The notes: a model not told the origin generated them from the sequence alone. Positions 11-60,708 are shown, counted from the stretch's first letter. The stretch is 64,000 nt of DNA from Candidatus Nomurabacteria bacterium (GCA_023267195.1 JAHFNT010000003.1:10841-74840); one strand, 5' to 3'. Program-made: numbers and translations.

Positions 11-1228
11 TTATTCTATACTGCCTAAAATGGAATACAGCGGTGAAATCATGGAAATCGCAAAAAAGCCGACTGCGCCGCCAATAATAATCATCAGCAC
101 AGGTTCAATAATTGTAGAAAGGTTTTTGGTTTTATTTTCCACTTCTTCTTCATAAAATGAAGCGACCTGTAGAAGCATATCTGATAATTTTCCGGTTTCT
201 TCTCCCACTTCAATCATCTCCGACATCATGATGGGATACAGTTTGGTATTTTCTTTGAAAGCCTCAGAAAAAGGAGCTCCCTTTTCTATGATTGTTCTAG
301 CGTTAACTAAAACCTTTTTATAATAAATATTTTGTACAACATCTTCAGTAATTTCGAGCGCTCTAGTAATGGAAACTCCCGACAAAAGAAGCGAGGAGAT
401 GGTGCGAGAAGTGCGCGCGGTATTCAATTCTTGCGCCAAATTGCCGATAATTGGGAATTTTATTATTGCAAAATCAATATATCTTGCCATGAATTTCGCG
501 GTAAAAATAAAATAAACACCAAGTCCAGCACAAATTACAATTACAAAAGTTAAGATCAGATTATTGGAAAAAAAGTTCCCAAAAAAGATGATGATCCTAG
601 TTGAAAGAGGCAAAGTAACTCCCAATTCTTTGAAAGTGGAAGCTAAGGTCGGCACCACAAAAGCAAACATCAAAACACCAATCACGATCATTGCCGAGAG
701 AATAACCCCTGGATAAATGAGCGCCCCGCGTATCTTCTTCGTTAAAGAATGGGATTTTTCCAAATTGAGCGCTATGTCAGACAGGGCGCCGGCCAGATTT
801 CCAGATTCTTCCCCAGCTTTTACCATCGACACGAAAAGTTTCGAAAAAACATTGGGAAATTTTGCTAGCGCGGAAGAAAAAGTGTCGCCTGCATTTATGT
901 CGTTCGACAGAGAGGTAAATATTTTATCCAATTTTGGATTTTTGGTCTGCTTTTTTAAAACTGACACTGCTCGATAAAGCGAAAGACCAGCTCTGATCAT
1001 GCCGCTTAAATTTTTGGTTAAAATAATTTGCTCCGCAACGCTTACCCTGGAAAAAATGTCCAGAAGGGTAGAAAATCTAGCAACAAAATCTTTATTTTTT
1101 TCCGTAATTGAAACAGGAACGTAGCCACGAGACCGAAGGTCACGCGCCAGGGAAATGCGATCTTTGGCTTCAAGCTCGCCCTCCGTCGTCTCCCCTGTTT
1201 TTAATTTTGCGCTGTAGGCAAAAAGCAT
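11..1228 (-). CDS. pilC: type IV pilus / T2SS inner-membrane platform protein PilC (GspF family)
   Basis: 405-aa ORF, polytopic membrane protein with duplicated GspF-type cytoplasmic domains; 13 nt downstream of PilB ATPase gene. Confidence 0.8.
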   Translation of the reverse strand: MLFAYSAKLKTGETTEGELEAKDRISLARDLRSRGYVPVSITEKNKDFVARFSTLLDIFSRVSVAEQIILTKNLSGMIRAGLSLYRAVSVLKKQTKNPKLDKIFTSLSNDINAGDTFSSALAKFPNVFSKLFVSMVKAGEESGNLAGALSDIALNLEKSHSLTKKIRGALIYPGVILSAMIVIGVLMFAFVVPTLASTFKELGVTLPLSTRIIIFFGNFFSNNLILTFVIVICAGLGVYFIFTAKFMARYIDFAIIKFPIIGNLAQELNTARTSRTISSLLLSGVSITRALEITEDVVQNIYYKKVLVNARTIIEKGAPFSEAFKENTKLYPIMMSEMIEVGEETGKLSDMLLQVASFYEEEVENKTKNLSTIIEPVLMIIIGGAVGFFAISMISPLYSILGSIE

Positions 1229-1241: not shown

Positions 1242-3002
1242 TTATTCTGAAACTACTCGGAACACTTCTTCTAAAGTGGTCACGCCAAGCACCGCCTGGA
1301 AAACTCCGTCTTCAATCATCGTCATCATTCCCTCTTTTTTTGCCTGAATCTCTATTTCATCCTGCGAACTTCCGCCAATAATCATTTCTTTGATAGCGGG
1401 CGTCACTTTCAACACCTCATGCATGCCTATGCGATTTGAATAGCCATCTTCAAATTCAGTGCTTTTCTTTGCTTTATAAAATGGAATTTTCTCCCAAGTA
1501 TCATCGGCGCCGATTATATTTTCAGTTTTCAAAAATGAAAGTACGCGGTCTAAATCGACCACTTTACTGAGATTTTTTATTTCCGCCGGGGATAAAAAAT
1601 ACTTTTCCTTGGTGGGTGTGAGCTTGCGCACCAATCTTTGCGCAATAATTGTTTTTACGGTAGCAGTTATTAAAAAAGGTTCTACCCCCATATCGATCAT
1701 TCGGGGTATTGCCCCGGCGGCAGAGTTGGTATGAATCGTAGATAAAACCAAATGTCCGGTAAGCGAAGCATTGACCGCGAGCCCCGCTGTCTCTCCATCA
1801 CGAATCTCCCCCACCATTACAATATCCGGATCTTGGCGCAGTAAAGAACGAAGGCCGTTGGCAAAAGTGAGACCGATTTCTGGCTTGACCTGGGTTTGGT
1901 TAATTCTCGGCATTTGGTATTCAATCGGATCTTCCACAGTAGAAATATTTACTTCCGGCCTATTTAAAATATCAAGCATGGTATAGAGCGTAGTAGTCTT
2001 TCCACTGCCCGTTGGCCCGGTAGCCAAAATCATTCCAGTTTTTTGTTTTAGTGAATTATGGATTCTTTCTAGTCCCTCGCCATGGAAACCAAGCGTCTCT
2101 AGTGAAAATCCGTGCGAAGTTTCTTTTAAAATTCTGATAACCGTTTTTTCTCCAAAAAAGGTCGGTAGGGTGGAAACACGAAAAGAAATTTTCTCTCCGT
2201 TTTGCTCTATTTTAAACCTTCCATCTTGGGGCAATCTTTTTTCATCAAGTTTTAAGTTTGATAACACCTTTATACGAGCGGTGATTCCCAAACCTGCGCT
2301 TTTTTCCAACACCATCGCATCGTGCAATATGCCGTCTATCCGATAACGCACCGTGAGCTCATGTTCGCCTGGTTCAATATGGATATCAGACGCGTTTTGT
2401 AAAATCGCATGAAAAATTAAAGAGTCCACTATTTTTACCACCGGCAAATCCTCCGCCATCTCTTTTAATTCCGACTCAGATTTTTCTACTGGTTTATCGC
2501 CATCTTTTTTAGAAGAAACATCTATGGCATTTGATTCTTTTTGAATAATATCTTGGAATTCTGCTTTCAGACTTTGCCGATACTGCACCAATACGGCTTT
2601 AATAGAAGAATTATCGGTCAGACGCGGTAAAATTTTTAAGCCTGAACGTTTCTTGATAAAATCAATTACCGGCAAATCGTCTACATCTAGCATTGCCACC
2701 TCTAGACCATTTTCACTCTTTTTGTAGGCGACAATGTTGTAATTGCGAGCAATTGGTTCTGGAATAAGAGAAAGTACAGAAAAATCTATTTTTTGATTTT
2801 TTAAATCAATAAAAGGTATGCCAAGCACAAATGCCTCCATTCTTTTCAAGTCCGTCTCAGATATTTTCCCTTCTGAAAGCAAAACATTGCCGATCTTTTG
2901 CTTAGTATCTAGAGCCTTTTTGGCCACCTCTTCAAAATCTGTTTTAGATACAAGCCCTGCTTCTAAAATAAATTTTTTTAACTGATCCTCGTTGATTTGC
3001 AT
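1242..3002 (-). CDS. pilB: type IV pilus assembly ATPase PilB (GspE family)
   Basis: 586 aa; Walker A GPTGSGKTTT, GspE/PilB Asp/His boxes, N-terminal GSPII-type domain. Confidence 0.85.
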   Translation of the reverse strand: MQINEDQLKKFILEAGLVSKTDFEEVAKKALDTKQKIGNVLLSEGKISETDLKRMEAFVLGIPFIDLKNQKIDFSVLSLIPEPIARNYNIVAYKKSENGLEVAMLDVDDLPVIDFIKKRSGLKILPRLTDNSSIKAVLVQYRQSLKAEFQDIIQKESNAIDVSSKKDGDKPVEKSESELKEMAEDLPVVKIVDSLIFHAILQNASDIHIEPGEHELTVRYRIDGILHDAMVLEKSAGLGITARIKVLSNLKLDEKRLPQDGRFKIEQNGEKISFRVSTLPTFFGEKTVIRILKETSHGFSLETLGFHGEGLERIHNSLKQKTGMILATGPTGSGKTTTLYTMLDILNRPEVNISTVEDPIEYQMPRINQTQVKPEIGLTFANGLRSLLRQDPDIVMVGEIRDGETAGLAVNASLTGHLVLSTIHTNSAAGAIPRMIDMGVEPFLITATVKTIIAQRLVRKLTPTKEKYFLSPAEIKNLSKVVDLDRVLSFLKTENIIGADDTWEKIPFYKAKKSTEFEDGYSNRIGMHEVLKVTPAIKEMIIGGSSQDEIEIQAKKEGMMTMIEDGVFQAVLGVTTLEEVFRVVSE

Positions 3003-3076
3003 TGCTTATATTATAGCAAAAAATTCCCGCGAACGTTAGAGAGCGGGAATTTTTTGCTAACTTTTTTATTAATCTG

Positions 3077-6000
3077 CTAATCTTCTATAAAGATCGGTAT
3101 CTTTTTGAATTCCAAACACGATGCGCCTCCACAAGACCATGTCCAAGCGGAGACACCGCTCGCCGCATCACCATTGTAATTGCCTTTAGTACAATTATTG
3201 TGTTTCAGGGCGCAAACGCCTCCACCCCAAGTATTAAACTTGCAGGAAGTGCTACATCCAACTGGTTCAGAATCGCCATTTAAATCTCCATAATCACAAT
3301 CTTCACCCGATTCCACTATACCATTTCCACAAACACCATTTTTTAATTCAACGCACGAAGGAAAAGCATTTGATCCGCCATTTATACCATTGCAATCCCA
3401 AGTATAGTCAGTAGCACTTTCTCTGTTATTGACACTAGTACCAGATACGCAAGCCCAGTGGATAATATCACAAACGCCATCAATGGGAGTCGCTATGCAC
3501 TTGCCTGTACCCGGATCCCATTCGGTGCCAGATGCACAACTGGAGAACACATTACTTAAAGCAAGCTGAACTCCATCATTGTAGAGATAAAAAGTTTCAA
3601 AATTATACTTGACCGCAAAAGGAACATTTGTCCCATTATTACCAGTAGCTACAGTGACACTGGGGGCTTTAGTAACTTCTGAAGTGCCTACTGGATTAGT
3701 CGTAGTCCAGGAAAAATTTATATTGCAACTGCTTGCTCCGAGCGGAATCGTGCAGGAAGGAACGGCAGGAGTAAGCGTGCCGGACATGCTGACAGGAAGG
3801 TCTGTAACAATCACATCTGTCCAAGGTCCGCAGTTATTGCCTTCGTTTGATTCGGCAATTACTCCTTGGCTCGAGGAATCTGTTTTGTCGGCACATGCCC
3901 TAATAGGATATTTCCCATTAGTGGTAAAAGTATAAGTATAAGATTGGGTCGTCACATTACTTGCGCCAGCGCCGAGAGCTGGCATTGGTGTCGCAGGAAG
4001 ATCCTCAACATTTAAACCTCTATTAGTAATCGGTATCTGAACCTGAAAGAAATTGGAGAAACTTTGGCCAGTCGAGGTGTCACCAAGGTTAGAAATAGTC
4101 GAAGAATATATTTGAGGCACACCCACCGTAGCTGTAGTTGGAGTTGTTGCGGAGGCGGTAAGATCTATCCCCGGAGGTAAAGCCGCAGCAACATTCACCG
4201 CTGTCCAGGAAGATGAGCAGTTGTTTCCTTCATTCGATTCAGTCACTGTGCCGACAAATGAAGCATTGTTGTCAGCGCAGGCTCGCATGTATTTGGTACC
4301 GACAGAAGTAAAGGTGTGAGGAGTTGAAATCACTACACTGCCGCCGGATGCGGACAAGGTACTAGTAGTTTGAACAATACTTGTTGTTTCGTTGCCACTA
4401 GCATGATTAGCATCTTCGTCAAACTGGTATAAATGCGTGATTGTTCCGGTTGCCGAGGTAGTGCCAATATTGGAAATTGTGGCGGTATAATTTTGAGCGA
4501 CATTAACAACCCCGGTGTTAGGAGAAGTGACGGAAGCAGTGAGGTCGGGGGCAAGTGGCGCTGTGACCGTTACTGTTGCACTAGAAGGACCCCCAGTACC
4601 ATTAGTATTTGTACAAGTCATTGTATAGGTGTAAGTCTTTATTTGTGTAAGCACCCCTTGAGAAATATTTGTTCCACTCACCGCATCGCCATTAGTATTT
4701 GTCCAATCTCCTCCGGTAAATGCACAAGAGGTTGGGTTGTTGGTAGCCGACCAAGTAAGCGCCGGGTTGACCACATTCACCACTCCAGAAGCCGGGTTAG
4801 CTGAAATAGTCACCACCGGCACGGGAACGGTTGTGACCACAATTGGCGTCCAAGCATAACAATTATTATTTTCATTAAACTCATTAACTACACCAAAATC
4901 GTACGGTGGTAAATCCGCGCAGACACGTAGGTAGTAAGTGCCAGCCGAGGAGAAAGTAAGCGATTTAAATATGGTAGTTGAATTTGGGACAGAACCATAT
5001 GGATCCCCGAGAGCTGGCGTTGCTACTGAATAGTTTGTAGGGTTGCTACCGCTTGCAGAACTGGAGACCTGGAAAAGAGAAGTGGAAGCGCTAGCAGAAA
5101 CTTCCCCATTATTTTTAATCGAGGCAAAATAATTTTGGGCTACATTTACGGTTGCGGTAGTTGGAGAAAGCGAAAGAACAGTTAGATCCGGCAGGAGACA
5201 AAACGGCGGAGCAGTAGCTGAGGCTTGAGCAGAATTTGGAGAAGTTCCAACAGTGTTTACCGCTTGCACCACGTAATAATAGCCAGTACTTGGAGTCAGG
5301 GAATTGCTGTCAGTGTAGGAAGTGCCAACGATACCACTAGCAAGCAAGGTATAACCGCTACCAGAAGTGGTACTGCGAAGCACTTTGTAACTTTCTGCTC
5401 CTGTCGATGCATTCCAGGATAAGTTAATCATACCAGTTCCACAACTTCCTGCAGAAGCAGAAAGATTGGTCGGCGCTAACGGCGCAGTACCGGACACTGC
5501 TACATCTCTCCAGTCTGAACAATTATTATTTTCGTTCGTTTCACTAACTACTCCACTTGAAGCAGAATTTGTTTTGTCGGCACAAACACGAACATAAAAT
5601 GTTCCCGGATAATCAGCAGTTATGGCAGGAGAAACTGCAGCAGTTGTGCCCCCGGCCGCAAGTGCACTGACAGTACTTGATGGAAGATCATTTAGAGTTC
5701 CCCCGCCATTCGGCTCAGTGGATGTCTGGAAAAAATAGGAGAAGGAAGCATTAGTAGATTCGTTGCCAACATTTGAAATTGTTGAATTGTATGTTTGAGG
5801 AACTCCCACCTGCGCCGTAGCTGGAGTAGGTAAAGAAGCAGTTAGATCCGGACCAGTTGGCGGAGAGGCAACCACGTACGCGCTTCCCGCAGGGCCAGCG
5901 CCGCTAATATTTGAACAAGTTAAGGTGTAGGTGTATGTTCCGGCTGATGGCAATACTCCTTGAGATACGCTTGAACCACTGACTGGTTTTGAACCGTTCC

Positions 6001-9000
6001 AATCACCCGAGGCGGTACAGGAACTAGGATTATTGGTCGCACTCCAAGTGATAGCTGGGTTAATACTCCCTGTTGTACCAGTACTAGGGGTGGCTGAAAT
6101 AGTTACTATCGGTACAGGAATCGTGGCCACCACCATTGCAGTCGCTTCTGCGCTATCTCCGCCAGCGTTGGAACAAACTAAACTATAGTTATATATTTTT
6201 TGTATTGGGAGTACTCCTTGCGACACACTAGTACCACTAACTGCTCCTCCGTTGGTATTGGTCCAGTTCCCAGAAAAAGTACAGGAGGTCGGATTGTTTG
6301 TAGCGCTCCAGGTTATAGCTGGGTTAATAGTTTGTGCTGGACCAGAAGCTGGAGAAACAGAAATAGTTACTACTGGTACAGGAGGAAGGGGTGGCTGACA
6401 CATACCTCCAATCCAACTTGTTCCTGATACACAAGTTGCGTAAGCTGTAGCGCTGGCTAGCGTTTCGCCATTGTTATTTAAAAAGAAATCTCTTAGACCG
6501 AAAGATGTTTGAACGGGATAGAAAGTTACTGGAATAGATACAGTGCCAGAATTGCCATTCCCAACTACAGTATTTGGGTTTTCCCTGTTTGAAGTGACAT
6601 TCGAAATACCAACTGGGTTTGTCGTATTCCAAGCCAAAGTCGTATTACAAGAACTAGCGCCGGAGGCAATTGTGCAGTTTGAAGCGGTCAAACTTCCGGA
6701 CATAACAGGCTTATCTTCGGAACATGAGGGAGAGGTATTGGACCCACCATTTTCGCCATTACAATTCCACAGATATTGTGTCGCGGAGTCTGGAATATCA
6801 CTTAAAATTCCTGCCTGACAAGCATTCACACTGACTCCACAGACGCCATTTACTGGACTACCTGGTGTGGTTTGACACATATTTTTTACTGCATTCCAAG
6901 TCGTACCCGAAGCGCAATTGGCGCTGACAATTGTTGTAGCTAGGGTACTTGAGTTATTAACCAAGCTGCAATTAACTGTGGGACTACTGTGAGAAATAGT
7001 TATAGACTGTGAACCAGAATTGGCGGTTATTGAACTAGGCGTAGCCCCCGGACAGGAAACAGTGGAAGTGCCAACCGGATAACTTGTATTCCAAGTCAAA
7101 GTTGAAGTACAAGAGTTTGCCCCAGAATTAATAGAACAGTTGGCGGGTGAAGCACTCAAGGTTCCGGATGTGAAGTTTTCTTGAACAAAGCTTGCCAGAA
7201 CTGCACATTCGGCATTAATAGGCCCAGTAGTATAAGTATTGCCAGCAAGAGAACCCCCGCAACCTGAAACCAAAGAAGTATATCCGGTATTGGGAGTAAC
7301 GGTAAAGGTTGTCGTGTTGCCCGCCGTCACCGTCCTAGAAGCAGGTGAAATAGATCCATTGGGACCGGCTGTGGCGGCGACACTATATGAGATCGAAGAT
7401 TTTGGCGCAGTGCAGGAAACACTTACTCCTCCATTTGACCCGTTGCAATCCCATCTATATTGGGTTGAAGTATCGCCAGTAGTACCACTGCTGGTACCCG
7501 CATCACAAGTGTAAGCAACCGCTGGGACTGAACAAGCGCCATTTATTGGGGAAGATGACGTCGCGCAAATTGTTCCATTCCAAAAAGTACCCGTATCACA
7601 GGAAGAAGTAACAGTTATACCGGCACCATTTGGCGATGTTGGAACAAGTGATTTGGCGTTGTTGTATAAATAAAAAGTTCTACTGCTGTAAGGAACAGTT
7701 AAAGTTTGACTGCCTGATGTGCCAGATAAATTTATATTTGACATTCCAGTTGCAGTGATAGCTGAACTTGCTGATTCTGGACTTGCCACACTCCAAGTTG
7801 AACCGACAGTACAACTACTCTGCCCTAAGGCGATGGTGCAAGAAGAAGATGCAGGAACAAGAGTACCGGTCATAGAAGGACATGGACTGGTAGTAAATGT
7901 TACATCTGTTCCAGCTCCAGTACCCACGCTGTTTACGGCATACGCGCGAAAATGATAAGCGGTATTGCATGTCAACCCGCTTACGTTTTGTGTAAAGTTT
8001 CCTGTTCCAAAACTTCCAGACTGAGGATAAGGACTTCCATAACTCGTACTGGTACCAAAATCAAAACCTCTTTGAGTTGCATTTACTCCTCCAGTATTTG
8101 TTATATTTCCATTTAGAGCGGCAGAAGTTTGAGTTACATTTGTAGCTGAGTTGGTGGTGACAGAGGGATCTATGATCGAGGATGATGTAAACGAAAAAGA
8201 AATATTACAGTCTTGGGTAATAGCCCCTGTGGTATATACACTACCAGATGTAAATGATCCTTTAATTGGACAGTAGTCCTGCACAATACTAGACAATGAT
8301 GAATTAACGCTAAAGAATGTGGTATCCCCATACACTACTGATCTAGATCCTGGAGATACTGTACCACCAGACCCATAACTTGCAGTAACAGTATGCGGTT
8401 GGACAGTATACACAGGACTAGAACAACTAGCTGAATTGCCAGCTAGATCTGTAATAGTAACACTACAAGAACTTCCAGCTGAAGCTGTACAAGTTCCACC
8501 GGCTACGTTTATGCCACTCTGCCCGCTAATACCACTGGCAGGCGCATCGGTTGCGCCGGAAAGTGTGTATGTAGGCCCTGATCCACTCCAATTTGCACTG
8601 CTAGGACTAGGACAAATAGGATCAAGCGTATCTATTCTATTCACCGGACTTTGACATGTAGTAAAATTTTGGGTTACTGATGGACAAGGAGTGAAGTATT
8701 GATAACTGGTAGTATCAATACAAGAGGCAGTACATGTAGCGTCATTAGAAGTACCAGTAGTACAACTACTTGTATGGTTAAGCGTACTGCTCCCATCGGT
8801 ATAACTTTGATTTAAAGTAAAATATTGAGAGCTCGCAGTTGTTTTCCAAGGAATAGGAGAAGCTGGGGTCCAAGTGGCTGGGTATGCAACACATTCTGCA
8901 TTAGTAGTTGGCTGTAAAGAAATAGTAACAGTTTTAGTGGGGCCATCGTAAGGGTCTGGTTGACAATTTTGCGCGATAAAGACAGCAATTTGCGCATTGG

Positions 9001-9316
9001 TGGTTATCGGGCTTGTGGTATAAGTTCTCCCGGTCGCATTTGGCCCAACATAATTATTTGATCCGCCAGGATAAGTAATATTATTCTGCGATCCTGGCTC
9101 CGCAACTGTGTATACCGTAAAAGTAAGCGTGTTTCCGGAAGCAACTTGCACTGAGCTATCTGTTGTATAATTATTTCCGTTGATGCTGAATGTTACGCCT
9201 GGGTCACCCACCGCACTACAGAGCGCAATTGCTTGTGCTCTATTAGAATTAAAATTAAAAACTCCAGTTAGAATAAAAATCAAAAAGAAGATAATTCTTA
9301 AAAATTTATTTTTCAT
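3077..9316 (-). CDS. giant secreted modular cell-surface protein (Ig-like, CARDB-like, Fn3-like and Cys-containing tandem modules)
   Basis: ORF 3077..9358 begins with TTG; an in-frame ATG at 9316 preceded by GGAG gives a classic signal peptide MKNKFLRIIFFLIFILTGVFNFNSNRAQA. Ser/Thr/Gly-rich. Four copies of a ~100-aa module (SGTL..C.I..G.SSC...W.T..PVG ... C.SGT.W....C), each followed by a QY.W.CNG.NGG...SC module. Three Ig-like repeats (VTISA.P..G..NPA.TWSATNNP.SC). Four CARDB-like repeats ending CAD......G.V.ESNE.NNC. One Fn3-like domain (SYKVLRSTTSGSGYTLL...YYYVVQAVNTVG). Confidence 0.75.
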   Translation of the reverse strand: MKNKFLRIIFFLIFILTGVFNFNSNRAQAIALCSAVGDPGVTFSINGNNYTTDSSVQVASGNTLTFTVYTVAEPGSQNNITYPGGSNNYVGPNATGRTYTTSPITTNAQIAVFIAQNCQPDPYDGPTKTVTISLQPTTNAECVAYPATWTPASPIPWKTTASSQYFTLNQSYTDGSSTLNHTSSCTTGTSNDATCTASCIDTTSYQYFTPCPSVTQNFTTCQSPVNRIDTLDPICPSPSSANWSGSGPTYTLSGATDAPASGISGQSGINVAGGTCTASAGSSCSVTITDLAGNSASCSSPVYTVQPHTVTASYGSGGTVSPGSRSVVYGDTTFFSVNSSLSSIVQDYCPIKGSFTSGSVYTTGAITQDCNISFSFTSSSIIDPSVTTNSATNVTQTSAALNGNITNTGGVNATQRGFDFGTSTSYGSPYPQSGSFGTGNFTQNVSGLTCNTAYHFRAYAVNSVGTGAGTDVTFTTSPCPSMTGTLVPASSSCTIALGQSSCTVGSTWSVASPESASSAITATGMSNINLSGTSGSQTLTVPYSSRTFYLYNNAKSLVPTSPNGAGITVTSSCDTGTFWNGTICATSSSPINGACSVPAVAYTCDAGTSSGTTGDTSTQYRWDCNGSNGGVSVSCTAPKSSISYSVAATAGPNGSISPASRTVTAGNTTTFTVTPNTGYTSLVSGCGGSLAGNTYTTGPINAECAVLASFVQENFTSGTLSASPANCSINSGANSCTSTLTWNTSYPVGTSTVSCPGATPSSITANSGSQSITISHSSPTVNCSLVNNSSTLATTIVSANCASGTTWNAVKNMCQTTPGSPVNGVCGVSVNACQAGILSDIPDSATQYLWNCNGENGGSNTSPSCSEDKPVMSGSLTASNCTIASGASSCNTTLAWNTTNPVGISNVTSNRENPNTVVGNGNSGTVSIPVTFYPVQTSFGLRDFFLNNNGETLASATAYATCVSGTSWIGGMCQPPLPPVPVVTISVSPASGPAQTINPAITWSATNNPTSCTFSGNWTNTNGGAVSGTSVSQGVLPIQKIYNYSLVCSNAGGDSAEATAMVVATIPVPIVTISATPSTGTTGSINPAITWSATNNPSSCTASGDWNGSKPVSGSSVSQGVLPSAGTYTYTLTCSNISGAGPAGSAYVVASPPTGPDLTASLPTPATAQVGVPQTYNSTISNVGNESTNASFSYFFQTSTEPNGGGTLNDLPSSTVSALAAGGTTAAVSPAITADYPGTFYVRVCADKTNSASSGVVSETNENNNCSDWRDVAVSGTAPLAPTNLSASAGSCGTGMINLSWNASTGAESYKVLRSTTSGSGYTLLASGIVGTSYTDSNSLTPSTGYYYVVQAVNTVGTSPNSAQASATAPPFCLLPDLTVLSLSPTTATVNVAQNYFASIKNNGEVSASASTSLFQVSSSASGSNPTNYSVATPALGDPYGSVPNSTTIFKSLTFSSAGTYYLRVCADLPPYDFGVVNEFNENNNCYAWTPIVVTTVPVPVVTISANPASGVVNVVNPALTWSATNNPTSCAFTGGDWTNTNGDAVSGTNISQGVLTQIKTYTYTMTCTNTNGTGGPSSATVTVTAPLAPDLTASVTSPNTGVVNVAQNYTATISNIGTTSATGTITHLYQFDEDANHASGNETTSIVQTTSTLSASGGSVVISTPHTFTSVGTKYMRACADNNASFVGTVTESNEGNNCSSSWTAVNVAAALPPGIDLTASATTPTTATVGVPQIYSSTISNLGDTSTGQSFSNFFQVQIPITNRGLNVEDLPATPMPALGAGASNVTTQSYTYTFTTNGKYPIRACADKTDSSSQGVIAESNEGNNCGPWTDVIVTDLPVSMSGTLTPAVPSCTIPLGASSCNINFSWTTTNPVGTSEVTKAPSVTVATGNNGTNVPFAVKYNFETFYLYNDGVQLALSNVFSSCASGTEWDPGTGKCIATPIDGVCDIIHWACVSGTSVNNRESATDYTWDCNGINGGSNAFPSCVELKNGVCGNGIVESGEDCDYGDLNGDSEPVGCSTSCKFNTWGGGVCALKHNNCTKGNYNGDAASGVSAWTWSCGGASCLEFKKIPIFIED

Positions 9317-9441
9317 ATTTATTTTTTCTCCGCTCCCATGGTTTAATAATACTTTCAATTGTACTACAAAAAATGTAAAAAGTTATCTAAAAAGTTATCC
9401 ACATAATTTAAAAAATTTAAAATTATAAATTTAGGCAAATT

Positions 9442-9484
9442 AAAACGAGAAAGCGGCGTGGCCTCCAGAGGAAGCTCGCCGCTC
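9442..9484 (-). terminator. rho-independent terminator of the GC-rich cassette gene (minus strand)
   Basis: reverse strand reads AGCGGCG-loop-CGCCGCT followed by TTCTCGTTTT directly after the stop at 9568. Confidence 0.45.
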
Positions 9485-9567
9485 TCTCAACCGCGCGATT
9501 GTGCGCAGTCGAGTGATGTGAGGGGGAAGAAGGGCCCCCTCGATCCCTTGCTCTAACCTATCAGGGG

Positions 9568-10347
9568 CTAGTTAGTGGGTGGCCGATAAACGGCCACCAC
9601 CCGGCTGGAGCAACGACCTCCTTCGCAGTAGGTCATGACCCAGTCGTTGTTAGGAAGGCTCCCCATGGAGATCTTCCCGTTGACGATTGGGACTTTGTTC
9701 CCCCCGAGAGTTACCACGGGGGGGGTCACCGAGACCGTCGGTACAGAGACGTTGATTTCGGACCCGTCCTCAGAGGGCCAGGCCCGAACGAACGGCCCAC
9801 ACGCGGGGGCCGCCGCCATCCGCACAGGCACCTCGGCAGACACGAACGAAACAGCACCAGTGGTCCCGTCAGTGATCACCGCCTCGAAAGCCGTAACCCC
9901 AACCGGCCAGGGGTCAGGGAACTTGGAACCCCAGAGCTGGGACCACCAGGTCCCACCACCCGAACCCGCCGGCACAGTGAAGCTGTTAAGCGGGATTGTT
10001 GCCCTCGAGGGCAGCACGATGTTGAAAAGGATCGTGCTTCCCTCGGGAAGCGGGTCGAACTGGTAGAAGTTCACGTGGGTTATCCGGGCGAATCCCGGGG
10101 GACCCACGAAAGAGACCTCGATTGTGGCGTTAGCCGGCGTCATCGCCGGCTCTGCAGCCCTGATCGAGGACCGAGAGCCGATATGAGTGGTGATGATGCC
10201 ACTCGTACCGTCGGTCAGCATGTCACCGGCGAAGTCTTCTGTGCCCGAAGGCACCAACTCAGCCAGCGACCGCCGAGGAGCCGTGGGCTGCGTGGCGTCC
10301 ACAGAGGACGCCAGCAGAAAGAAGAGGGTAACGAGAGTGGCGCGCAT
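9568..10347 (-). CDS. hypothetical secreted protein encoded in a GC-rich (~60%) cassette
   Basis: 259 aa; signal peptide MRATLVTLFFLLASSVDA; strong SD AAGGAGGG 7 nt before ATG; codon usage/GC clearly unlike flanking genes; several long shadow ORFs on both strands typical of GC-rich DNA. Confidence 0.55.
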   Translation of the reverse strand: MRATLVTLFFLLASSVDATQPTAPRRSLAELVPSGTEDFAGDMLTDGTSGIITTHIGSRSSIRAAEPAMTPANATIEVSFVGPPGFARITHVNFYQFDPLPEGSTILFNIVLPSRATIPLNSFTVPAGSGGGTWWSQLWGSKFPDPWPVGVTAFEAVITDGTTGAVSFVSAEVPVRMAAAPACGPFVRAWPSEDGSEINVSVPTVSVTPPVVTLGGNKVPIVNGKISMGSLPNNDWVMTYCEGGRCSSRVVAVYRPPTN

Positions 10348-10537
10348 GGCGCCCTCCTTTCCGACCCGCCTTTCTTTGCGGATCTGTTGTTAGTCTACTC
10401 TTCTGTTGTCGACGAACCGACAACCGAAGAACCAGTAATTCCTTATGAGTATACCATAAAAAAGTAAAAAACACAATTGCAAGTGGATAACCTGTGGACA
10501 ATTTTTGCCGTATACTGTCAATGTTTTTGGCTCGAAT

Positions 10538-25094: not shown

Positions 25095-26984
25095 CTAAAG
25101 TATTTTTATTGTACCGCCTGTGTTCCCGGCCATAATATATTCGGCGACTTTGTTTTCAACTATTTCTTCAATCGCTCGCTTGATGGGGCGAGCGCCAAAA
25201 TCAGGGTCAAAACCGGCCGCGGAAACTTTTTCCACTAGCGCGTCGGTGACAAGCAGGATAATTTGCTTATCTCCAAGGAGACGTGAAGCAAATTCATCTA
25301 GCAAAAGTTTAGTAATTTTCTTTACTTCATTTTGTCCAAGTGGTTTGAAAAGAATAATGCCATTCCACCGGTTCAAAAATTCCGGCGCAAACACCCCAGC
25401 CTGAATCAGATTATTTATTAATGTCTTTTTTTCTACGCTCGGATTATTTATTATCTCTTTACTCCCAGCGTTGGAAGTGGCAATAATGAGAGCATCGCGA
25501 AAACTTGCTTCTCTCCCAGAGCTCCGAGTCAAGCGTCCTTCATCGAGCACTTGCAAAAGTAAATTGCGAACCGAAACATTAGACTTTTCCAGCTCATCAA
25601 AAAATACCAAAGAGAGAGGCGCTTCTTCTATGGCACCTGAGAGCCTTTCGGTAAAAGTTTCAACTGAATCAGGGCCAGAAAACTCACTCATATCAAAACG
25701 AATCATTGCATTTTTGCGACCAAAATAACTTTCCGCTAAAATTTTTGCCGTGTAAGTCTTCCCCACTCCCGTCGGGCCCAAAAAAAGAAAACTACCGGCT
25801 GGCTTGGTGTGGTCGGCAATACCGGTGCGCAGACGAATGAGCGCCTGTGACACGTCGGAGACTGCCTCCTCCTGCCCGATTATTTTATGCTTCATTGACA
25901 TTTCCAATCCAGCCAAAACTTTCCTTTCATCCGCGCCGATTTCTCCTATTGGTACATTCGTCTTATCGGAAATTATTTGCCTGACGTCATCTATAGTTAT
26001 GGTCTTGTGCAGTGTCTCGAGTTCTTCTAAAATTCTAAGAGAGCGTGCGGGCTCTAATTCATTGCCAATTAAACGCTCCGCCAAACGCGCAATTTCTAAA
26101 AGAGCCTCCTGTTTGATAGACACCCCGAGCGACTGCGCGCTGTTTTCAAGTATTAGAATAGTATCTTCTTTGTTGGTAGGAGCCACATCTACTTTTTCAA
26201 ATTTGGAAAGAAACTCTGGATGTTTTTTTAGTACCCGATCATAATTAGAAAAATCAGTGGTAACGATAATTCCCAAATGGGGAATTTTTAGATACGGCAT
26301 CAGATTTTCAAAAAAGTTCTCATACCGATCTATATTTTCAATCACCAGCACCACATCGCCCGAGAGCGCCGCTTCCTCTAAACATTTCTCAAAATCAGAC
26401 AAGTTAATTCCTTCAGTAAAAAGTTCTACCACTCGGCGGTGGCGAATGCCCGGAAAAGAGAGACCCGACCGTCCCAACCTGCCTAAATAAGAAACCAGGG
26501 TTGACTTGCCAACGCCATTGTCCCCCACCAAAAGCACATTGTGATTGGTGTCTTTAGAAAGCGCGCGTTCGATCATCCGAAGCGCTTTCTCTTTACCATA
26601 AATCCTCTTTGAGGAATCACTTAGAACTTCGCGGCCATGCGCATTTAAAATATAAGTCTCGCTATAAGAGAGCGACGCGCCAATACTGCCTAGATTTTGC
26701 AAATAATCACGACTAATTTTTATGGGTAAAAGAAAAAATACCGGGAAAATTAAAATGACTAGAATAGTAAAAATCAAACCGATAATTATCAAAACCACCC
26801 GCGCCACAAAACCTAAAATTCTTGAGAAAATAAAAAAAACTGCCTTTTCTAAAAAGGAAACATTTTTCCCGGCGTCTTTATCCATTTTCCACGGCAAAAA
26901 AAGAGTTTTAAAGAGAAGCGGAATAGAAAAAGCATTAAAGGCATACAACACAAGATTTTTCCACGACTGTATTCCCGGGTGCAT
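25095..26984 (-). CDS. membrane-anchored double-AAA+ Clp/Hsp100-family ATPase (no N-domain or M-domain)
   Basis: 629 aa; ~95-aa N-terminal region with 3 predicted TM helices; D1 Walker A GDNGVGKST, D2 Walker A GPTGVGKTYTAK, sensor-2 GARPIKR; no obvious IG[FL] ClpP-docking loop. Confidence 0.7.
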   Translation of the reverse strand: MHPGIQSWKNLVLYAFNAFSIPLLFKTLFLPWKMDKDAGKNVSFLEKAVFFIFSRILGFVARVVLIIIGLIFTILVILIFPVFFLLPIKISRDYLQNLGSIGASLSYSETYILNAHGREVLSDSSKRIYGKEKALRMIERALSKDTNHNVLLVGDNGVGKSTLVSYLGRLGRSGLSFPGIRHRRVVELFTEGINLSDFEKCLEEAALSGDVVLVIENIDRYENFFENLMPYLKIPHLGIIVTTDFSNYDRVLKKHPEFLSKFEKVDVAPTNKEDTILILENSAQSLGVSIKQEALLEIARLAERLIGNELEPARSLRILEELETLHKTITIDDVRQIISDKTNVPIGEIGADERKVLAGLEMSMKHKIIGQEEAVSDVSQALIRLRTGIADHTKPAGSFLFLGPTGVGKTYTAKILAESYFGRKNAMIRFDMSEFSGPDSVETFTERLSGAIEEAPLSLVFFDELEKSNVSVRNLLLQVLDEGRLTRSSGREASFRDALIIATSNAGSKEIINNPSVEKKTLINNLIQAGVFAPEFLNRWNGIILFKPLGQNEVKKITKLLLDEFASRLLGDKQIILLVTDALVEKVSAAGFDPDFGARPIKRAIEEIVENKVAEYIMAGNTGGTIKIL

Positions 26985-36530: not shown

Positions 36531-39500
36531 ATGCAATCGGGCCAAGCAACCACTTTGTCGGGCACTTACTCCAAAGTAACATTTCTTCACAAATTGCTAG
36601 CGTTTTCGCTGGCTTTTTTGTTTTTAGTAGTTCCGCTTGCTCCAGTTTGGGCAGAAAAAGTTACCGAGGACCCATCTGCGATTTCTAAAGTTGAATCAAC
36701 CACCACAGAACCGGAAATTGTTACTGAGAATAGCGAGGACGCAGATGTTTCAACAAAAGTAGACATGGATAAACAACCACCGGCACCACAGTCGTTTACC
36801 GTAAATAATATATCTGGGGATAATCGCGATAAACCAAATTTGAGTTTTCCTCAAGTGGATCAGGCCTCTGGCGGGTTAGCTTATAGTTATCCCTTAAATA
36901 TACCGCCCGGTAGAAATGGTTTTAATCCAAATTTAACTTTGCAATATTCAAGCCAAGATACAGATCAAGCATCGGTTTTTGGTTATGGATGGTCAATCAA
37001 TATACCTTACATAAAACGTTTGAATAAAACTGGAGTAGAAAAATTATATACAACCAATTACTTTACCTCTTCACTCTCCGGTGAATTGGTAAATGTTTCT
37101 GGTTCTACCTATGCGCCTAAGGTGGAAAATGGGGATTTTCTAAAATATAACTACGATGGCACCTCTTGGATCGTAACCGATAAAAAAGGAACAGTCTACA
37201 AATTTGGGACAAGCACACCAGCCAGACAAGACGACACCACTGGAACGAAAATTTACAAATGGATGCTCGAGGAAGCAAGAGATACAAATAATAATTTCAT
37301 CAAATATGAATATTACAAAGACACTGGGCAAATTTATCCTGAAACTATAAAATACACCGGCAACGACACGACCAATGGAGTGTTTTCAGTAAGTTTGATT
37401 CGTTCTGGAAGAAATGACAACATTACACAAAACTCAACGCTCTTTAGTATAACTACCAATTATAAAATATCTGAAATACAAACAATAACCAATGGGACTT
37501 GGAATAAAAAATATATTTTGGGTTATTCAAATGGTGACAATGGTTATAAATCATTAATAACTAGCATCACGGAGTCAGGACAGGATGAAAATGCAAATGT
37601 TGTCACATTGCCACCTGTGCAATTTACTTATCAAGTAGCGACAACGCCAGGAAGTGATTTTGTTTCTGATTTTGCCTGGTCTAATCCTGTTTCTCCAACA
37701 ATTTCTACCAATCCATCTTATGGAGCGGTGGTAGCAGATGTTAATAGTGATGGTCTGCCGGATATTATGGAATCATATAGAAGTTCCGGAACTCTTATTT
37801 GGTACAAAGGAACTTACTTAAATAACGGCAACGGAACCTGGACCCAAAATCCAAATCTTGAACCGCCAACAATTTTTGGAGATAATAATCCAGTAACGGA
37901 ACAAGGGATAAGGGCAGTTGACTTGAATGCGGATGGATTTGTAGATCTGGTTCAAAGTTCTGGGTCTCTGTCGAAAGTTTATATAAACACAGGAACTTCA
38001 TGGGTTTTGAATAATAACTGGATTCCCAAATGTGCCTTTGCTAGCCCAATATATGGAGACATTGGTTGTAGATTAGATGATATAAATGGTGACGATTTGC
38101 CAGATTTTTTCATAGCGAGAGGTGATAACACCGGCAACCCACCAATCAATACCGAAGTATATTTAAATAATGGGAACGGTTGGAGTGAAAATCCTGAACC
38201 AGGCTGGAGTATACCTGCAGACTTAAGATTTGGCACAGTACCCGTAGATTATAATGGTGACGGACTTTTGGATTTTTTACAAGGCTACAAAAATACTTTG
38301 AGCAACCCAACAGTTGAAATAAAAAAGGCATATAAAAATAACGGGGACAAAACTTGGTCTTTGGATGGTGCATATACATCTCCAGTAATTTTCGCAACTC
38401 AAACAAACTTAGCTTCATTGCCGTTTACTACCGGAGCTTTAGTAGCGGATGTGAATGGAGATGGTTTAGTTGACATATTACATGGCACCGAAACAACTGA
38501 TGGTGGACATCTAAATAAGGGCACAGGCTGGAGTTTTACACCAAACTGGGACTTTGGTCATGGTTCTATTCCAATCGAAGCACCACTCCGGGCTAGATTA
38601 GGAGATTTTGATGGAGATGGAATGATTGATTATTATGAAAGTGGAAGTGGTAGCGCAACTTTTTCTAAAAATCAAAACATAAAGGCGGATCTAATCAAAA
38701 CCATAAAGAATCAATATGGTGGAATTTCAACCATTACTTACAAAGGCTCAACTCAATACAAAAATGGCAATAGCTTAGCAAACCCAAATCTGCCATTCAA
38801 TATAATAACTGTAAGCAGTATTTCCTCTAACCCCAGCCTTGGAGGAACAAGTGTTGTGAAAAATTACACTTATGAACAAGGAGATTATTATTACAACACA
38901 ATACTGGATAGAAAATACGCCGGTTTTGGAAAGATAATTGACCTTGATTCTTCTGGCGCCAAAACCGCCAGCTATTTTCATCAAGGCAATGAGACAAATT
39001 CTAGCTTAGGTGAATACGATGATCATCCGTCAAAAATCGGCAAAATTTACCGCACCGAAATTAGAGACAGCTCCGGGAATTTATATGAGAGCGTGATCAA
39101 TAAATGGGAAAAACAAAATTTGGGCCCGGGTAGAGATTTTGCCAAACTGGCACGAACAATGGTCATGTCTTTTGACGGCAATAGCGACAACAGAAGCAAG
39201 GCGGAAGAATACTCATACGATAGTTATGGCAATCTAACGCAAAAAATTTCCTGGGGAGAAGTGATAGGCGCAACTGACGGAACATTCACCGACCTGGGGA
39301 ACGACAAATTTACGGAAAATATTTCTTATGTTTCAAATACTGGCAATTATGTCGTGGGTTTACCATCTCAAGATATAGTACTCGATCAAAATTCAGACAA
39401 AGTTCGTGAGACAAAAATGTATTATGATGGACTCGCTTTTGGTTCGGTCGGCACGGGCAATGAAACCAAACTGGAAAAATGGAAATCTGGCAGTTCGTAT

Positions 39501-42500
39501 GTAAATACTCAAAAATCTTACAATATAACTTACGGGATTTTGACTTCCTCCACCGATGAACGAGGCAAGGTTACAACTTACTCTTATGATTCTTATAATC
39601 TATACCCAATTTCAGTAACTAATCCTGCCCTGCAGATAGTACGATATCTTTATGATTATTCTCTCGGCAAACCAAAACAATTGATTGATCAAAACAGCTT
39701 CACTTATCAAACAATTTTTGATGGACTGGATAGAGTATTGCAAGAAAAAGTTCCGGACTTATCTTCACCTGATACTTTAGTAGTCAAAACAGCCTACACC
39801 TATGCTGACACCTCTCTCGCGGTAGGTGTTTTGAAAACAGATTATTTAGATAGCACAAATTCTGTAAATACCTACCAATATTTTGACGGCCTGAATCGTT
39901 TGATCCAAGAACGCAAAGAGGCCGAGCAGAGCAACTCCTACAATACTCGCGATATTGTGTACAATAATTTCGGTTTAATCCAAAAAGAATCTTTACCTTA
40001 TGCGTCAAATGGGTATGCCAGGACAAATCCAACTACCGACAATGCCCTTTACACTTCCTATTCTTATGACGCGCAAAAGAGAATCAGCAATGTCGCAAAT
40101 GCAGTGGGTAACACCTCGACCAATTACGATGACTGGAAAACTTCCATTACTGATCCGAATGGTAAAATCAAACATTTCTTGAGCGATGGGTATGATAATC
40201 TAGTAAAGGTGGAGGAAATAAATGCTGGCAATACTTACAACACTTACTACGAATGGGATGGTAACAAATTTCTGACTAAAATCACCGATGCTCTCGCCAA
40301 TGTTCGCAATTTCACTTACGACGGGCTGGGCAGGAGGCTCACTGCAGAAGATTTGCATGCCATGGGAGACAGTACTTATGGCACTTGGGCTTATACCTAT
40401 GACGATGCAGGCAATCTGACGCGAAGTATAAGCCCAGAAACAAAAATTATAAATTATTCTTATGACGACATTAATAGATTGCAAACTGAAGATTATGTGG
40501 GAGGTAGCGGAATGGAAATATCCTATGTTTATGATAATTGCACAAACGGCATAGGAAAATTATGCTCTTCAACAGTTTTGGGCGGAGGAGACAATGTCTA
40601 CACTTATGATAGTGTAGGTAATATTGCTTCTGATCAAGCCACTATCAACGAAAATATTTATCTCACGTCGTATTCATACGATCGACAAAATAATTTGTCA
40701 CTCATAACCTATCCAGATAATGCACAAGTGAAATATATCTACAATGCTGCCGGCTTGCTTGAAAAAGTTGAAAGAAAAGAAAATAGTGGAACATTTGTAG
40801 ATGTAATTTCAAATTTTGATTATAATCCAACAGAACAAGTGGCCGTGCAAGCAGATGCAAATGGCATCACTACGACAAATACTTATGATTCAGGAAAATT
40901 ATACCGTTTGACAAATAAGAAAACTTTGAATTCTACCCCCATTTCTCCTTGGAAAGATCCTAACCCCGCTATCACCCCCATAGATCCATATGTAACAAAT
41001 TTTGGGAACATAAATATTACCCCTAAAACAAATCTATCGATTGCCTTGCAAGATTTATCTTATATTTATGATAATGTCGGTAATATTATTAAAATCATTG
41101 ATTCATCAAATACTACCACTGCCAAAACTGCTGATTATGTCTACGACGATCTATACCGCTTAGTTTCTGCTACTATCACTGGCGTACCATCTCCCCAAAC
41201 TCCCTACATTCAAACCTTCACCTATGACGCTATTGGTAACATCACTTCCGGCCCGCTTGGCACTTATCTTTATCAAGGTAACACCGGAGTAAACTACGCC
41301 AACCCCCACGCTACCACCTCTATTGGTGGAGTAGAACAAACTTACGACAAAGATGGCAATCTAATTTCTGCTGGAGATATTACTTACTCTTGGAATTACA
41401 AAGGGAAACTTGCTGAAACTCTTTCAGTATACAACTATTACAACGCCAAAGGAGACAGAGTACAAACCAATGCTTTCTCTTCTATCAATACCTATTATCC
41501 CAATAAATTCTATAGCACCTCCTGCCCCAATTGTTCCGACAGGCAACCTCCAGATCAAGAACGTCAAATCAAATTAACCAAACAAATCTACATTGGAGAT
41601 ACACTGGTAGCCACCACTGAAACTCTAAGCGCCGTTGTCACCCCATATTATGATCACACCGATCAATTAGGTTCCATTACCATTGTCTCTGATGCCAACA
41701 AGAATATTGCGCAAACTTTAGATTACTATCCTTATGGCAAGAAAAGAGTCGTTGCCCCTCCTGGAGACTATGATTCACAGCGCCAATACATCGGACAAAT
41801 CTATGATCTAGATACTGGACTAAACTATCTAAATGCGAGATACTATGATGGAAACAAGGGGCAGTTTATTTCGCAGGATCCGATGTTTTGGAACTTTGAC
41901 AATTCCTGGTTGCTTGATCCACAGAACATGAATGCGTATAGCTATGCAAGGGGGAATCCGATGAATAGGTCGGATCCGGGTGGTATGGCTAGTAAAGAAT
42001 TTAATTTTCCTACGTTTACGATGATAAAATCGTTTTTCAATTCTTTGGTGGGGAAAACAAATACGCAGAGGGAGACAACGCAAATTCCATTTATAAATCA
42101 AAATAATTCTCAAAAAAAGACCGACAATTCTGGCCAAAATAAAAATACTTCTGGTTATATAAGAAGCAATGATGTTAATATCACCTTTAGCCCGGGAGCT
42201 GATAATGTTGTTAACCAAAAAATGGTTGATGGATATAAAAATGTATTTAAAGAAGCAGGACATTATGGTATAATTTCTGTTAATTTTTATTCAACCACAA
42301 ACCATGTATCAGAACCACCCGGCAGTTTTTCTTGGCATGACTTTGCGCTTGCTGGTGATATTAATATGGTCAATGGCATGAAAGCAACCGAAGATAATTT
42401 TTATGCAAAAACTTTGCAGGAAGTTATAAACCGGACACAAGGAGTAAGAGAGAATTTTGGTCCATTTATGATTACACATTCCAGTAAAATATATTCTCAA

Positions 42501-53141: not shown

Positions 53142-53915
53142 ATGAAAATAATTTCTTGGAACACAAATGGATTGCGCGCCACAGCCAAACAAGGCTTCTT
53201 TGCTCCCCTCTTTCAAGAACAAGCTCCAGATATTTTATGTTTACAAGAAACCAAAGCAGAACCAGCACAATTGCCAGAAAACGTGCGAGAGATTCCGGGA
53301 TATTTTTCCTATTTTTCGCATCCTAAAACCAAAAAGGGGTATTCCGGAGTCGCGATTTACACCAAAGAAAAACCACAAGAAGTTTTTTATGGTCTAGGTG
53401 TTGAAGAATTAGATAACGAAGGCAGACTGATCGGAATGAAATTTAAAAAATTTACTTTGATCAACTGTTATTTTCCAAATGGCGGTCAAGGGCCAGATAG
53501 ATTGAAATACAAACTTGAGTTTTATGAGGCTTTTTTGAAATTTATTTTAAAATTAAGAAAAGCGGGTGAAAATGTGATTTTTTGCGGAGACATAAACACT
53601 GCCCATGAGGCAATAGACCTCGCTCGACCGAAAGAAAATGAAGAAAATACAGGGTTTTTACCGATCGAGCGCGCTTGGCTCGATAAAGTGGTAAAAAATA
53701 ATTTTGTCGATGTCTGGCGCAATCTGAATCCAAATAAAAAAGATGTTTACACCTACTGGGATCAAAAAACTCGTGCCCGAGACCGCAATGTCGGCTGGCG
53801 CATTGATTATTTCTTTGTGGACGCCAAAATTTTAAACAAAATAAAAGATACAGGCGTCTTAGGAGATTATTACGGCTCCGACCACTGCCCAATTTGGCTA
53901 GAAATTTCTAATTAA
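53142..53915 (+). CDS. xth: exodeoxyribonuclease III (AP endonuclease)
   Basis: 257 aa; WNTNGLR, LCLQETK, GSDHCPIWLEI. Confidence 0.9.
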   Translation: MKIISWNTNGLRATAKQGFFAPLFQEQAPDILCLQETKAEPAQLPENVREIPGYFSYFSHPKTKKGYSGVAIYTKEKPQEVFYGLGVEELDNEGRLIGMKFKKFTLINCYFPNGGQGPDRLKYKLEFYEAFLKFILKLRKAGENVIFCGDINTAHEAIDLARPKENEENTGFLPIERAWLDKVVKNNFVDVWRNLNPNKKDVYTYWDQKTRARDRNVGWRIDYFFVDAKILNKIKDTGVLGDYYGSDHCPIWLEISN

Positions 53916-59675: not shown

Positions 59676-59746
59676 TGCGGCCAGAGAGAATCGAACTCTC
59701 GTCTCATCCTTGGCAAGGACGTGTTCTACCACTAAACCATGACCGC
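59676..59746 (-). tRNA. tRNA-Gly (anticodon GCC)
   Basis: manual cloverleaf fold of reverse strand: acceptor GCGGTCA/TGGCCGC, anticodon loop TTGCCAA, T-arm GAGAG-TTCGATT-CTCTC, discriminator A, no encoded CCA. Confidence 0.8.
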
Positions 59747-59875
59747 TAATTAAATTATTAATATTTTAACCAGTAAATTATAGTATTTTATTTACTATAA
59801 TGCAATTATATTTTTTAAGCTTGTAAAATATGAATATTTTGATTATTTTATAAATAATGTATAATTAACTAGATT

Positions 59876-59947: not shown

Positions 59948-59981
59948 CACCAAAAAGCAATTTAAAGAATAAATTATTTGT

Positions 59982-60625: not shown

Positions 60626-60708
60626 CTCTTCGCTCTGAGGCTCAGCTCGAAGAGGTCATGGTGGAAAAAATTAAATCATGATATACTCTTTTTGTTTTAA
60701 ATCGCAAA

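Follow-up and report, generated by a model that had tools for sequence, protein, structure and literature searches.

Host recognition and attachment by the uncultivated, ultrasmall bacteria of the Candidate Phyla Radiation (CPR) are, to our knowledge, largely unknown; type IV pili have been implicated, and we know of no adhesin that has been pinned down outside Saccharibacteria. A 64,000-nt stretch of DNA from Candidatus Nomurabacteria bacterium (GCA_023267195.1 JAHFNT010000003.1:10841-74840), here called the window, poses this question in a concrete form: directly beside the genes for the pilus motor ATPase (pilB) and platform protein (pilC) lies a gene for a giant modular surface protein, and we asked what might hold such a protein at the cell and what it might do there. 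The locus offers a concrete candidate, in which the body of the protein is reshuffled between species while a nine-residue tail and an address beside the pilus motor are kept. By analogy, and tentatively, at a probability somewhat short of even, we favour a tip adhesin of the PilY1/MshQ kind, a functional analogue and not a homologue of those proteins, docked by C-terminal β-strand addition.

An open reading frame (ORF) search recovered the frame at 3077..9358 on the minus strand, immediately upstream of pilB (type IV pilus/type II secretion extension ATPase; 1242..3002, minus strand; T2SSE 8e-121, plus MshEN) and pilC (11..1228, minus strand; T2SSF 1e-54), as an earlier sequence-only reading of this DNA had described. 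The likely start is the ATG at 9316, which gives a gene at 3077..9316 (stop codon 3077-3079) and a product of 2,079 residues; the same protein, residue for residue (P0001), is encoded on contigs of 142 and 65 kb from two public assemblies. A Shine-Dalgarno-like GGGAGCGGAG can be read at 9328-9337 (minus strand), 11 nt before this ATG, and implies a leadered mRNA. The protein begins with a putative Sec-type signal peptide, MKNKFLRIIFFLIFILTGVFNFNSNRAQA (residues 1-29; 9230..9316, minus strand), and contains 72 Cys (3.5%), in even numbers per module, with Thr and Ser at 14.5% each. Scanned against Pfam and NCBIfam, both whole and in segments, the protein matched only CARDB (83.2 bits against a cut-off of 22.7, in four stretches), fn3 (25.7 against a cut-off of 25), Flg_new_2 and a weak Cys-rich repeat, a profile typical of CARDB/fn3 surface proteins, and a PDB sequence search returned fn3 matches only. 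These results support a Sec-exported, disulfide-rich, modular β-sandwich product of adhesin type, and the earlier description of a modular, Cys-containing surface protein stands. The Pfam and NCBIfam scans gave no match to SLH, PG_binding, LysM or similar wall-binding domains, and none to a C-terminal β-propeller (PF05567, Neisseria_PilC) in the whole protein or its segments. A motif scan found no class III signal (G|F-T-L-I-E) of type IV pilins at the N-terminus, and the C-terminus, ..LEFKKIPIFIED, carries no sortase, exosortase or archaeosortase sorting motif with a hydrophobic helix.

What is kept at this position became apparent from 80 loci around PilB homologues 64-88% identical to that of the window, on contigs of Ca. 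Nomurabacteria, Paceibacterota or Patescibacteria metagenome-assembled genomes; 26 of these, with PilB at least 75% identical, were assessable. In 20 of the 26 a large ORF bearing the same C-terminal motif lies upstream of pilB on the same strand, directly adjacent in 17, and most of the 20 begin with a signal-peptide-like N-terminus; the pilB-side position is therefore retained among relatives, and genes with the tail were absent from any other position in the 80 loci. The proteins that fill this slot range from 312 to 2,296 residues and draw on X, Y, CARDB, Ig-like and fn3 modules in differing order, so that across 120 pairs the median of colinear identical residues is 4.1% (maximum 24%), compared with a median of 78.6% for PilB. 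By these comparisons the slot is hypervariable between genomes, which bears out the earlier expectation of a variable locus; the copy-number variation expected with it does not fit, as the differences look like module shuffling or replacement rather than copy-number slippage. A slot protein at 4% identity beside PilB at 79% and a PilK-like pilin at 67-83% fits a surface-exposed specificity determinant.

The sole element common to all slot proteins is the C-terminus, K-K-x-P-x-[FY]-x-E-x-COOH, which in the window reads KKIPIFIED (residues 2071-2079; 3080..3106, minus strand). Among 33 non-redundant slot proteins with this tail (class 1), E(-2) is present in 33/33, F/Y/W(-4) in 31/33, P(-6) in 30/33 and K(-8) in 27/33. 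Tail codons vary at synonymous positions, which places selection on the protein; a role for the tail as a DNA element for pilB was rejected on the same ground, third codon positions varying while the amino acids are kept. A Sec-like N-terminus was found in 56 of 63 family members and a hydrophobic stretch in the last 70 residues in none of the 63, which leaves the nine-residue tail as the only candidate attachment element. In the 64-kb window the tail occurs nowhere outside this protein. A metagenome scan that used only the pattern (tail codons plus stop) identified 19 loci, 13 at the ends of long ORFs and six in very short frames, and pilB followed 22-102 nt downstream of 12/12 long-ORF tails that had enough downstream sequence. 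Four tail-bearing homologues found independently of the tail, through their domains (P0004, P0005, P0021 and P0295), all lie upstream of pilB-pilC, and P0295 retains pilB without nusA as its other neighbour. That a Sec-exported mosaic without an anchor, encoded in a pilus locus, should keep a nine-residue tail fits well with the idea of a strand donated in trans.

A candidate acceptor is encoded at the same locus. Past pilC, to the left of the window (L001 19311-22680), lies a minor-pilin cassette with prepilins of 442 and 202 residues (L001 20744-22680), both carrying G|FTL[IV]E motifs and the only two proteins in which the motif scan found prepilin motifs, and beside them a 478-residue ComZ/PilK-like pilin without Glu5. 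The giant gene shares its locus with minor pilins; pilB-pilC intervene, the cassette is on the opposite strand, and the giant protein itself has a Sec signal and no prepilin motif. Relatives carry either this cassette, sometimes inverted, or one of three small pilins with a 420-600-residue Glu5-less pilin; the two alternative forms were seen across ~37 related loci, with inversion in some genomes including this one, and the gene for the Glu5-less pilin comes last in the cassette. The 478-residue pilin is 67-83% identical in >100 relatives, and in the PDB it matches the Thermus tip pilin ComZ best (9e-10). Its AlphaFold2 model (predicted local distance difference test, pLDDT, 85) comprises a pilin helix and sheet with a large β-rich insert and then, after a flexible linker modelled at low confidence, a terminal strand, LSWQE, and its C-terminus is strongly conserved as ..[IL]SW[KQ]E[VI]x (PSGGWxIxSWKEVx or YxILSWQEVK). 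An aromatic-x-Glu signature is common to the tail of the giant protein and the terminal strand of the PilK-like pilin (..SWQEIK). An internal IIFIED in the latter also matches a 5-mer of the tail, probably by chance, in a β-solenoid turn. Comparison of tail variants with the PilK-like C-terminus or with cassette type gave no pattern of covariation across 21 loci, and the notion that the tail mimics the pilin N-terminus (KG|FTLIE) was dropped, the register being different and nothing supporting it.

There is a published precedent for such docking. The last ~10 residues of PilC/PilY1 complete the β-sheet of a PilK-family minor pilin in trans, MshQ of MSHA pili is predicted to do likewise, and pilins of the GspK, ComGG, CpaL and ComZ types provide the strand in cis (Ellison et al., PMC13533445). 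If the same principle applies here, the protein would be a Sec-exported, disulfide-stabilised string of ~20 β-sandwich and small Cys-knot modules, a hypervariable adhesin stalk whose last nine residues would most likely form a donor β-strand, fastening it non-covalently to the type IV pilus tip complex. The acceptor would be a minor pilin, with the tip complex made up of the Glu5-less ComZ/PilK-like pilin and the partner pilins encoded just past pilC, and the variable part of the protein would bind host or partner cells. We counted the tracking of pilB by the class-1 tail, the tip set present at the locus and the strand-addition precedent in favour of a tip adhesin, and a pilus-associated adhesin role is plausible.

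The sequence-only reading had also made the gene the probable first cistron of one pilus operon with pilB-pilC, with variability arising by recombination between its internal repeats. The shared strand and the 74-nt gap between the stop codon (3077-3079) and the pilB ATG (3002) are compatible with a single operon, but that gap holds an intrinsic-terminator-like hairpin (3014..3059, minus strand; 17 bp with a 12-nt loop, flanked by A and U tracts) of −25.2 kcal/mol (z −5.45; 0/200 shuffles fold as well) and an extended −10 box, TGCTATAAT (TGnTATAAT; 3010..3018, minus strand), the last T of which is 7 nt before the pilB ATG. This layout recurs in 16 of 18 related loci with stem sequences that differ in a compensatory manner, and the −10-like box of the relatives (TATAAT, TATACT or TACAAT) lies 6-9 nt before the pilB ATG. 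With its U tract, above-chance stability and conserved structure, the stem-loop has the features expected of a Rho-independent terminator; the −10 box looks like the leaderless-type promoter of this genome, as the same box distance is seen at other window genes. The adhesin gene would then be transcribed alone, as a leadered, Shine-Dalgarno-containing mRNA ending at a strong terminator, and pilB would restart from a leaderless-type promoter. Separate promoter and terminator elements were what the sequence-only reading itself had named as grounds for refutation, and by that standard obligatory co-transcription is refuted; leaky read-through into pilB may occur, since terminators can leak. Repeat-driven recombination fares no better, the best internal DNA repeat being 72% identical over 122 nt with no tandem or longer repeat above that. 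To judge from this divergence the DNA-level repeats are old, making repeat collapse in assembly or slippage unlikely, and both were rejected. A single operon diversified by its own repeats is, in our estimation, very improbable.

Many genes in the window that have no Shine-Dalgarno sequence show a TAnAAT-like box whose end is 6-9 nt from the ATG, frequently with TG in front of it (examples are the starts at 23588, 25095-26984 on the minus strand, 34619, 45108, 52173 and 55754), which suggests, from the box positions, that leaderless transcripts are widespread; the adhesin gene, with a leader and a strong Shine-Dalgarno sequence, is an exception among them. In its promoter region, a 12-bp tandem repeat (GATAACTTTTTA x2; 9376-9403, minus strand) overlaps a perfect DnaA-box sequence, TTATCCACA, and two near-perfect DnaA boxes lie at 10482-10501. 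These DnaA-box-like sequences may be regulatory. A replication origin, considered because of the boxes (9395-9403 and 10482-10501) and the divergent genes, was rejected, as boxes are not enriched (24 compared with 17.7 expected) and the GC skew follows gene strand.

Several findings weigh against a pilus-tip adhesin. Neither the β-propeller of PilY1/PilC nor any other known tip-adhesin domain was found in the Pfam and NCBIfam scans; a terminator and a promoter stand between the gene and pilB; and the PilK-like pilin, judging by its model, apparently provides its C-terminal strand itself, in cis, which in the published scheme is the arrangement of filaments without a tip adhesin (PMC13533445). 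The slot is empty in the close relatives L007 and L017, so the protein is dispensable for possessing pilus genes. A class-1-like gene, P0227, has nusA on one side and TIM-PGK on the other, the entire pil block being missing, and the tail gene P0188 has no pilB within 4 kb. Gene order is conserved well beyond the pilus genes (H+-PPase - nusA / slot / pilB - pilC - minor pilins / TIM - PGK), and because H+-PPase, nusA, TIM and PGK are equally conserved neighbours, the pilB adjacency may be inherited gene order and on its own lends a functional link no more than moderate support. Of the 143 top-ranking X-module proteins, 46 carry the class-1 tail and another 46 a hydrophobic-x-E-x end (64% together), most of these with a related class-2 tail, ..VKVIxLxIKE[NQ]; three class-2 proteins (P0020, P0247 and P0009) are encoded upstream of tuf-rpsJ in 3/3 cases, and not beside pil genes. 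On this evidence the tail may serve surface anchoring in general. In a monomer AlphaFold2 model it falls below pLDDT 50.

Much of this could be accommodated by a general cell-envelope adhesin or coat protein, Sec-exported and held on the wall, the S-layer or another receptor by its hydrophobic-x-E-x tail, which would be a sorting or anchoring signal used across the clade and without a tie to pili, with the slot an ancestral position for variable genes. Such a reading gains from the 92 of 143 top X-module proteins that end in hydrophobic-x-E-x, from the tuf-rpsJ position of class 2, from P0227, in which the tail and the nusA flank persist where pilBC is missing, from the equal synteny of housekeeping genes unrelated to pili, from the gene having its own promoter and terminator, from slots with no gene or with a different secreted product (in L024, a Peptidase_S74 protein resembling tail fibres) and from the strand that the PilK-like pilin of this locus apparently supplies in cis. 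It sits poorly with the class-1 tail tracking pilB (12/12 in the unbiased scan, and P0295 with pilB and not nusA), with the lack of a transmembrane anchor, of a sortase signal and of any known domain that binds wall or S-layer, with an element of nine residues, short for wall binding and well sized to add a strand to a partner protein, and with the resemblance of that element to the minor pilin's own terminal strand; we regard it as rather unlikely. A different use of a terminal peptide is reported for TcpF/CofJ, which engage the minor pilin at the tip of type IVb pili through a short peptide of this kind (PMC9565799, PMC6048534), and a gene in a pilus locus for a product with a Sec signal, a short conserved terminal peptide and no anchor would suit a cargo that is passed to the tip and then driven across the envelope or set free. 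Against this, TcpF and CofJ use an N-terminal peptide and a homotrimeric type IVb tip, in contrast to the I/J/K-type set with a ComZ-like pilin here, and a string of beads of 312-3,566 residues without an enzymatic or toxin domain resembles a tethered stalk and not a soluble effector, making cargo improbable. The tip adhesin thus remains our preferred reading. A bolder version of it would have interchangeable Paceibacteria adhesins docking by donor-strand exchange, their nine-residue strand mimicking, displacing or extending the ComZ/PilK-like cis strand (..SWQEIK), so that one filament for DNA uptake and attachment is re-tipped with differing host-recognition modules, class 1 from beside pilB and class 2 from beside tuf; this we offer as a speculation with little more than an outside chance of being right.

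The architecture on which the adhesin reading is built comprises ~20 small domains, copies within each module type being 34-60% identical. Boundaries were set by chunked self-BLAST, which is noisy without composition correction, followed by explicit module alignments; self-BLAST of the whole protein gave the identity match only. Modules reproduced in both comparisons, and the approximate positions proposed from sequence were right to within roughly 50-200 nt. All features that follow are on the minus strand. After the signal peptide comes a Cys-rich region (residues 30-307; 8396..9229) with no Pfam match, whose sole homologue is the L002 slot protein and which is probably the distal, variable end. 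It is followed by an InlB B-repeat-like module, B1 (residues 308-381; 8174..8395), 40% identical to B2; an fn3-like domain (residues 384-481; 7874..8167; fn3 5.5e-3, with many repeated matches in homologues); X1 and Y1 (residues 484-589 and 590-640; 7550-7867 and 7397-7549, together 7397..7867); the InlB B-repeat B2 (residues 642-712; 7181..7393; Flg_new_2 7.3e-6); X2 and Y2 (residues 714-820 and 821-868; 6857-7177 and 6713-6856, together 6713..7177); and X3 (residues 872-975; 6392..6703), after which there is no Y module. Two 2-Cys Ig-like repeats that are 60% identical (Ig1, 6125-6382, and Ig2, 5861-6124; residues 979-1152, together 5861..6382) lead into CARDB1 (residues 1153-1274; 5495..5860), an fn3 domain (residues 1275-1373; 5198..5494; Pfam 1.3e-5, PDB Fn3 2e-14), CARDB2 (residues 1374-1495; 4832..5197), Ig3 (residues 1496-1586; 4559..4831) and the pair CARDB3 and CARDB4 (4184-4558 and 3803-4183; residues 1587-1838, together 3803..4558), the CARDB modules being defined by Pfam and alignments and the X, Y and Ig-like modules by alignments. 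X4 and Y3 (residues 1843-1943 and 1944-1992; 3488-3790 and 3341-3487, together 3341..3790), a Cys-rich acidic repeat of the myxo type (residues 1993-2030; 3227-3340; TIGR02232 2.5e-3, below cut-off) and a degenerate Y4 recognised by alignment (residues 2031-2070; 3107-3226) precede the tail.

The four CARDB domains (Pfam 1.6e-23) and three Ig-like repeats (55-60% identical) seen in the sequence-only reading are borne out. Of its four X/Y pairs, the four X modules (34-46% identical) stand, with only three canonical Y modules, one degenerate copy and X3 unpaired; its single fn3 domain is correct at 5198-5494, and the second, at 7874-8167, had been overlooked, as had the two InlB B-repeats, the Cys-rich acidic repeat, the Cys-rich N-terminal 280 residues and the nine-residue tail. 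Neither Pfam nor NCBIfam has a model for the X, Y or 2-Cys Ig-like modules. From a 32-sequence module alignment, AlphaFold2 predicts X as a β-sandwich (pLDDT ~98), for which Foldseek returned generic Ig/fn3 resemblance only (E ~0.01); 1,643 representative proteins among 1.84 billion match an X-module profile, which identifies X as a real family without a Pfam model.

Other occupants and neighbours of the two slots were noted alongside. The tuf-side position of class-2 genes, directly or nearly upstream of tuf-rpsJ in contexts L085, L086 and L107, appears to be another conserved site where variable surface proteins are encoded. In L020, L022, L024, L025 and L031 the pilB-side slot holds a secreted family sharing the N-terminal motif W.xP...PP..N...P.N.G...Q.K.G.L; the L024 member ends in a Peptidase_S74 intramolecular-chaperone domain, as in phage tail fibres, and that of L025 has a Gly_rich_2 domain. 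In L108, the only genome whose tail gene has no pilBC after it, the gene that comes next (9016-9870) encodes a 284-residue protein matching Por_Secre_tail, a type IX secretion C-terminal domain unexpected in Patescibacteria. Between nusA and the adhesin gene, the window itself carries an ORF of 259 residues with a signal peptide (9568-10347, minus strand) and 60-64% GC, compared with ~42% for the genome; the two near-perfect DnaA boxes lie upstream of it, and a search of 5.8 billion protein clusters found only itself. Comparable higher-GC secreted ORFs of 230-420 residues lie upstream of the tail gene in L004, L005, L011, L013, L015 and L016, that of L004 being 27% identical (E 1.6e-4) to the one in the window, and this ORF could be a recurrent foreign insertion or a member of a fast-evolving family.

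Elsewhere in the window, a second giant gene (36531-42563, plus strand; 2,010 residues) encodes SpvB, TcdB_toxin_midN, FG-GAP and RHS repeats and, by its domain content, is a Tc/RHS-type polymorphic-toxin architecture in a CPR genome. A secreted protein of 307 residues (53912-54835, minus strand) has an Lcl C-terminal domain (PF07603, 2e-26), a family also present on several distant matches to the adhesin. An Rfam scan of the window found only four tRNAs, clustered at 59676-60899.

Our literature search found no report of the tail motif or of giant proteins adjacent to pilB in Patescibacteria, and the tail, its linkage to pilB, the conserved terminator-promoter junction and the existence of two tail classes seem not to have been described before. 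Should the tail dock on tip pilins, the recently described β-strand-addition rule would extend to the pilus of CPR bacteria, presumed to have a single membrane, and to adhesins without a PilY1 domain; the tail would provide a sequence tag for host-range determinants in metagenomes; and the X, Y and 2-Cys Ig-like modules, X alone in ~1,600 representative proteins, would be defined. If it docks elsewhere, it would still represent an undescribed surface-anchoring signal.

The closest parallels are PilC/PilY1 and MshQ, an analogue by prediction, which are likewise large, Sec-exported, non-pilin, disulfide-rich proteins with a variable N-terminal part, from pilus loci that also encode an I/J/K-type minor-pilin set; their docking function resides in the last ~10 residues, and here that segment is the only conserved one. 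Unlike PilC/PilY1, the protein has no C-terminal β-propeller (PF05567) and no sequence homology to them, and membership of the PilY1 family fails for want of that propeller, so our claim is one of analogy only. It is also encoded upstream of pilB and not inside a minor-pilin operon, and its PilK-like partner appears, as modelled, to carry its own cis strand. The CPR bacterium, presumed to be single-membraned and without a secretin, differs in this from the hosts of PilC/PilY1. Thermus thermophilus ComZ (PDB 6qvi) bears on the adjacent 478-residue pilin and not on the adhesin: both combine a pilin domain with a large β-rich insert, but they are only ~12% identical, and Thermus has no associated giant tail-bearing protein. 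TcpF/CofJ share the pilus-locus gene, Sec export and a short, flexible terminal peptide; they differ in that this peptide is N-terminal, in being small and soluble and in a homotrimeric type IVb tip. The minor-pilin Tips of the Myxococcus Kil (Tad) system (PMC12075869) and the modular pilins of Streptococcus sanguinis (PMC8179133) embody the same concept of a conserved filament with swappable end domains that recognise different cells; their modules are grafted onto true class III-signal pilins, whereas the present protein lacks a pilin domain and starts with a conventional Sec signal. In domain repertoire and mosaic layout it matches CARDB/fn3/Ig-like/InlB-B-repeat surface proteins of Patescibacteria (e.g. 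P0008, 'Cell wall/surface repeat protein', Ca. Nomurabacteria), and it is the class-1 tail and the fixed pilB-side position that set this subset apart from such generic repeat proteins.

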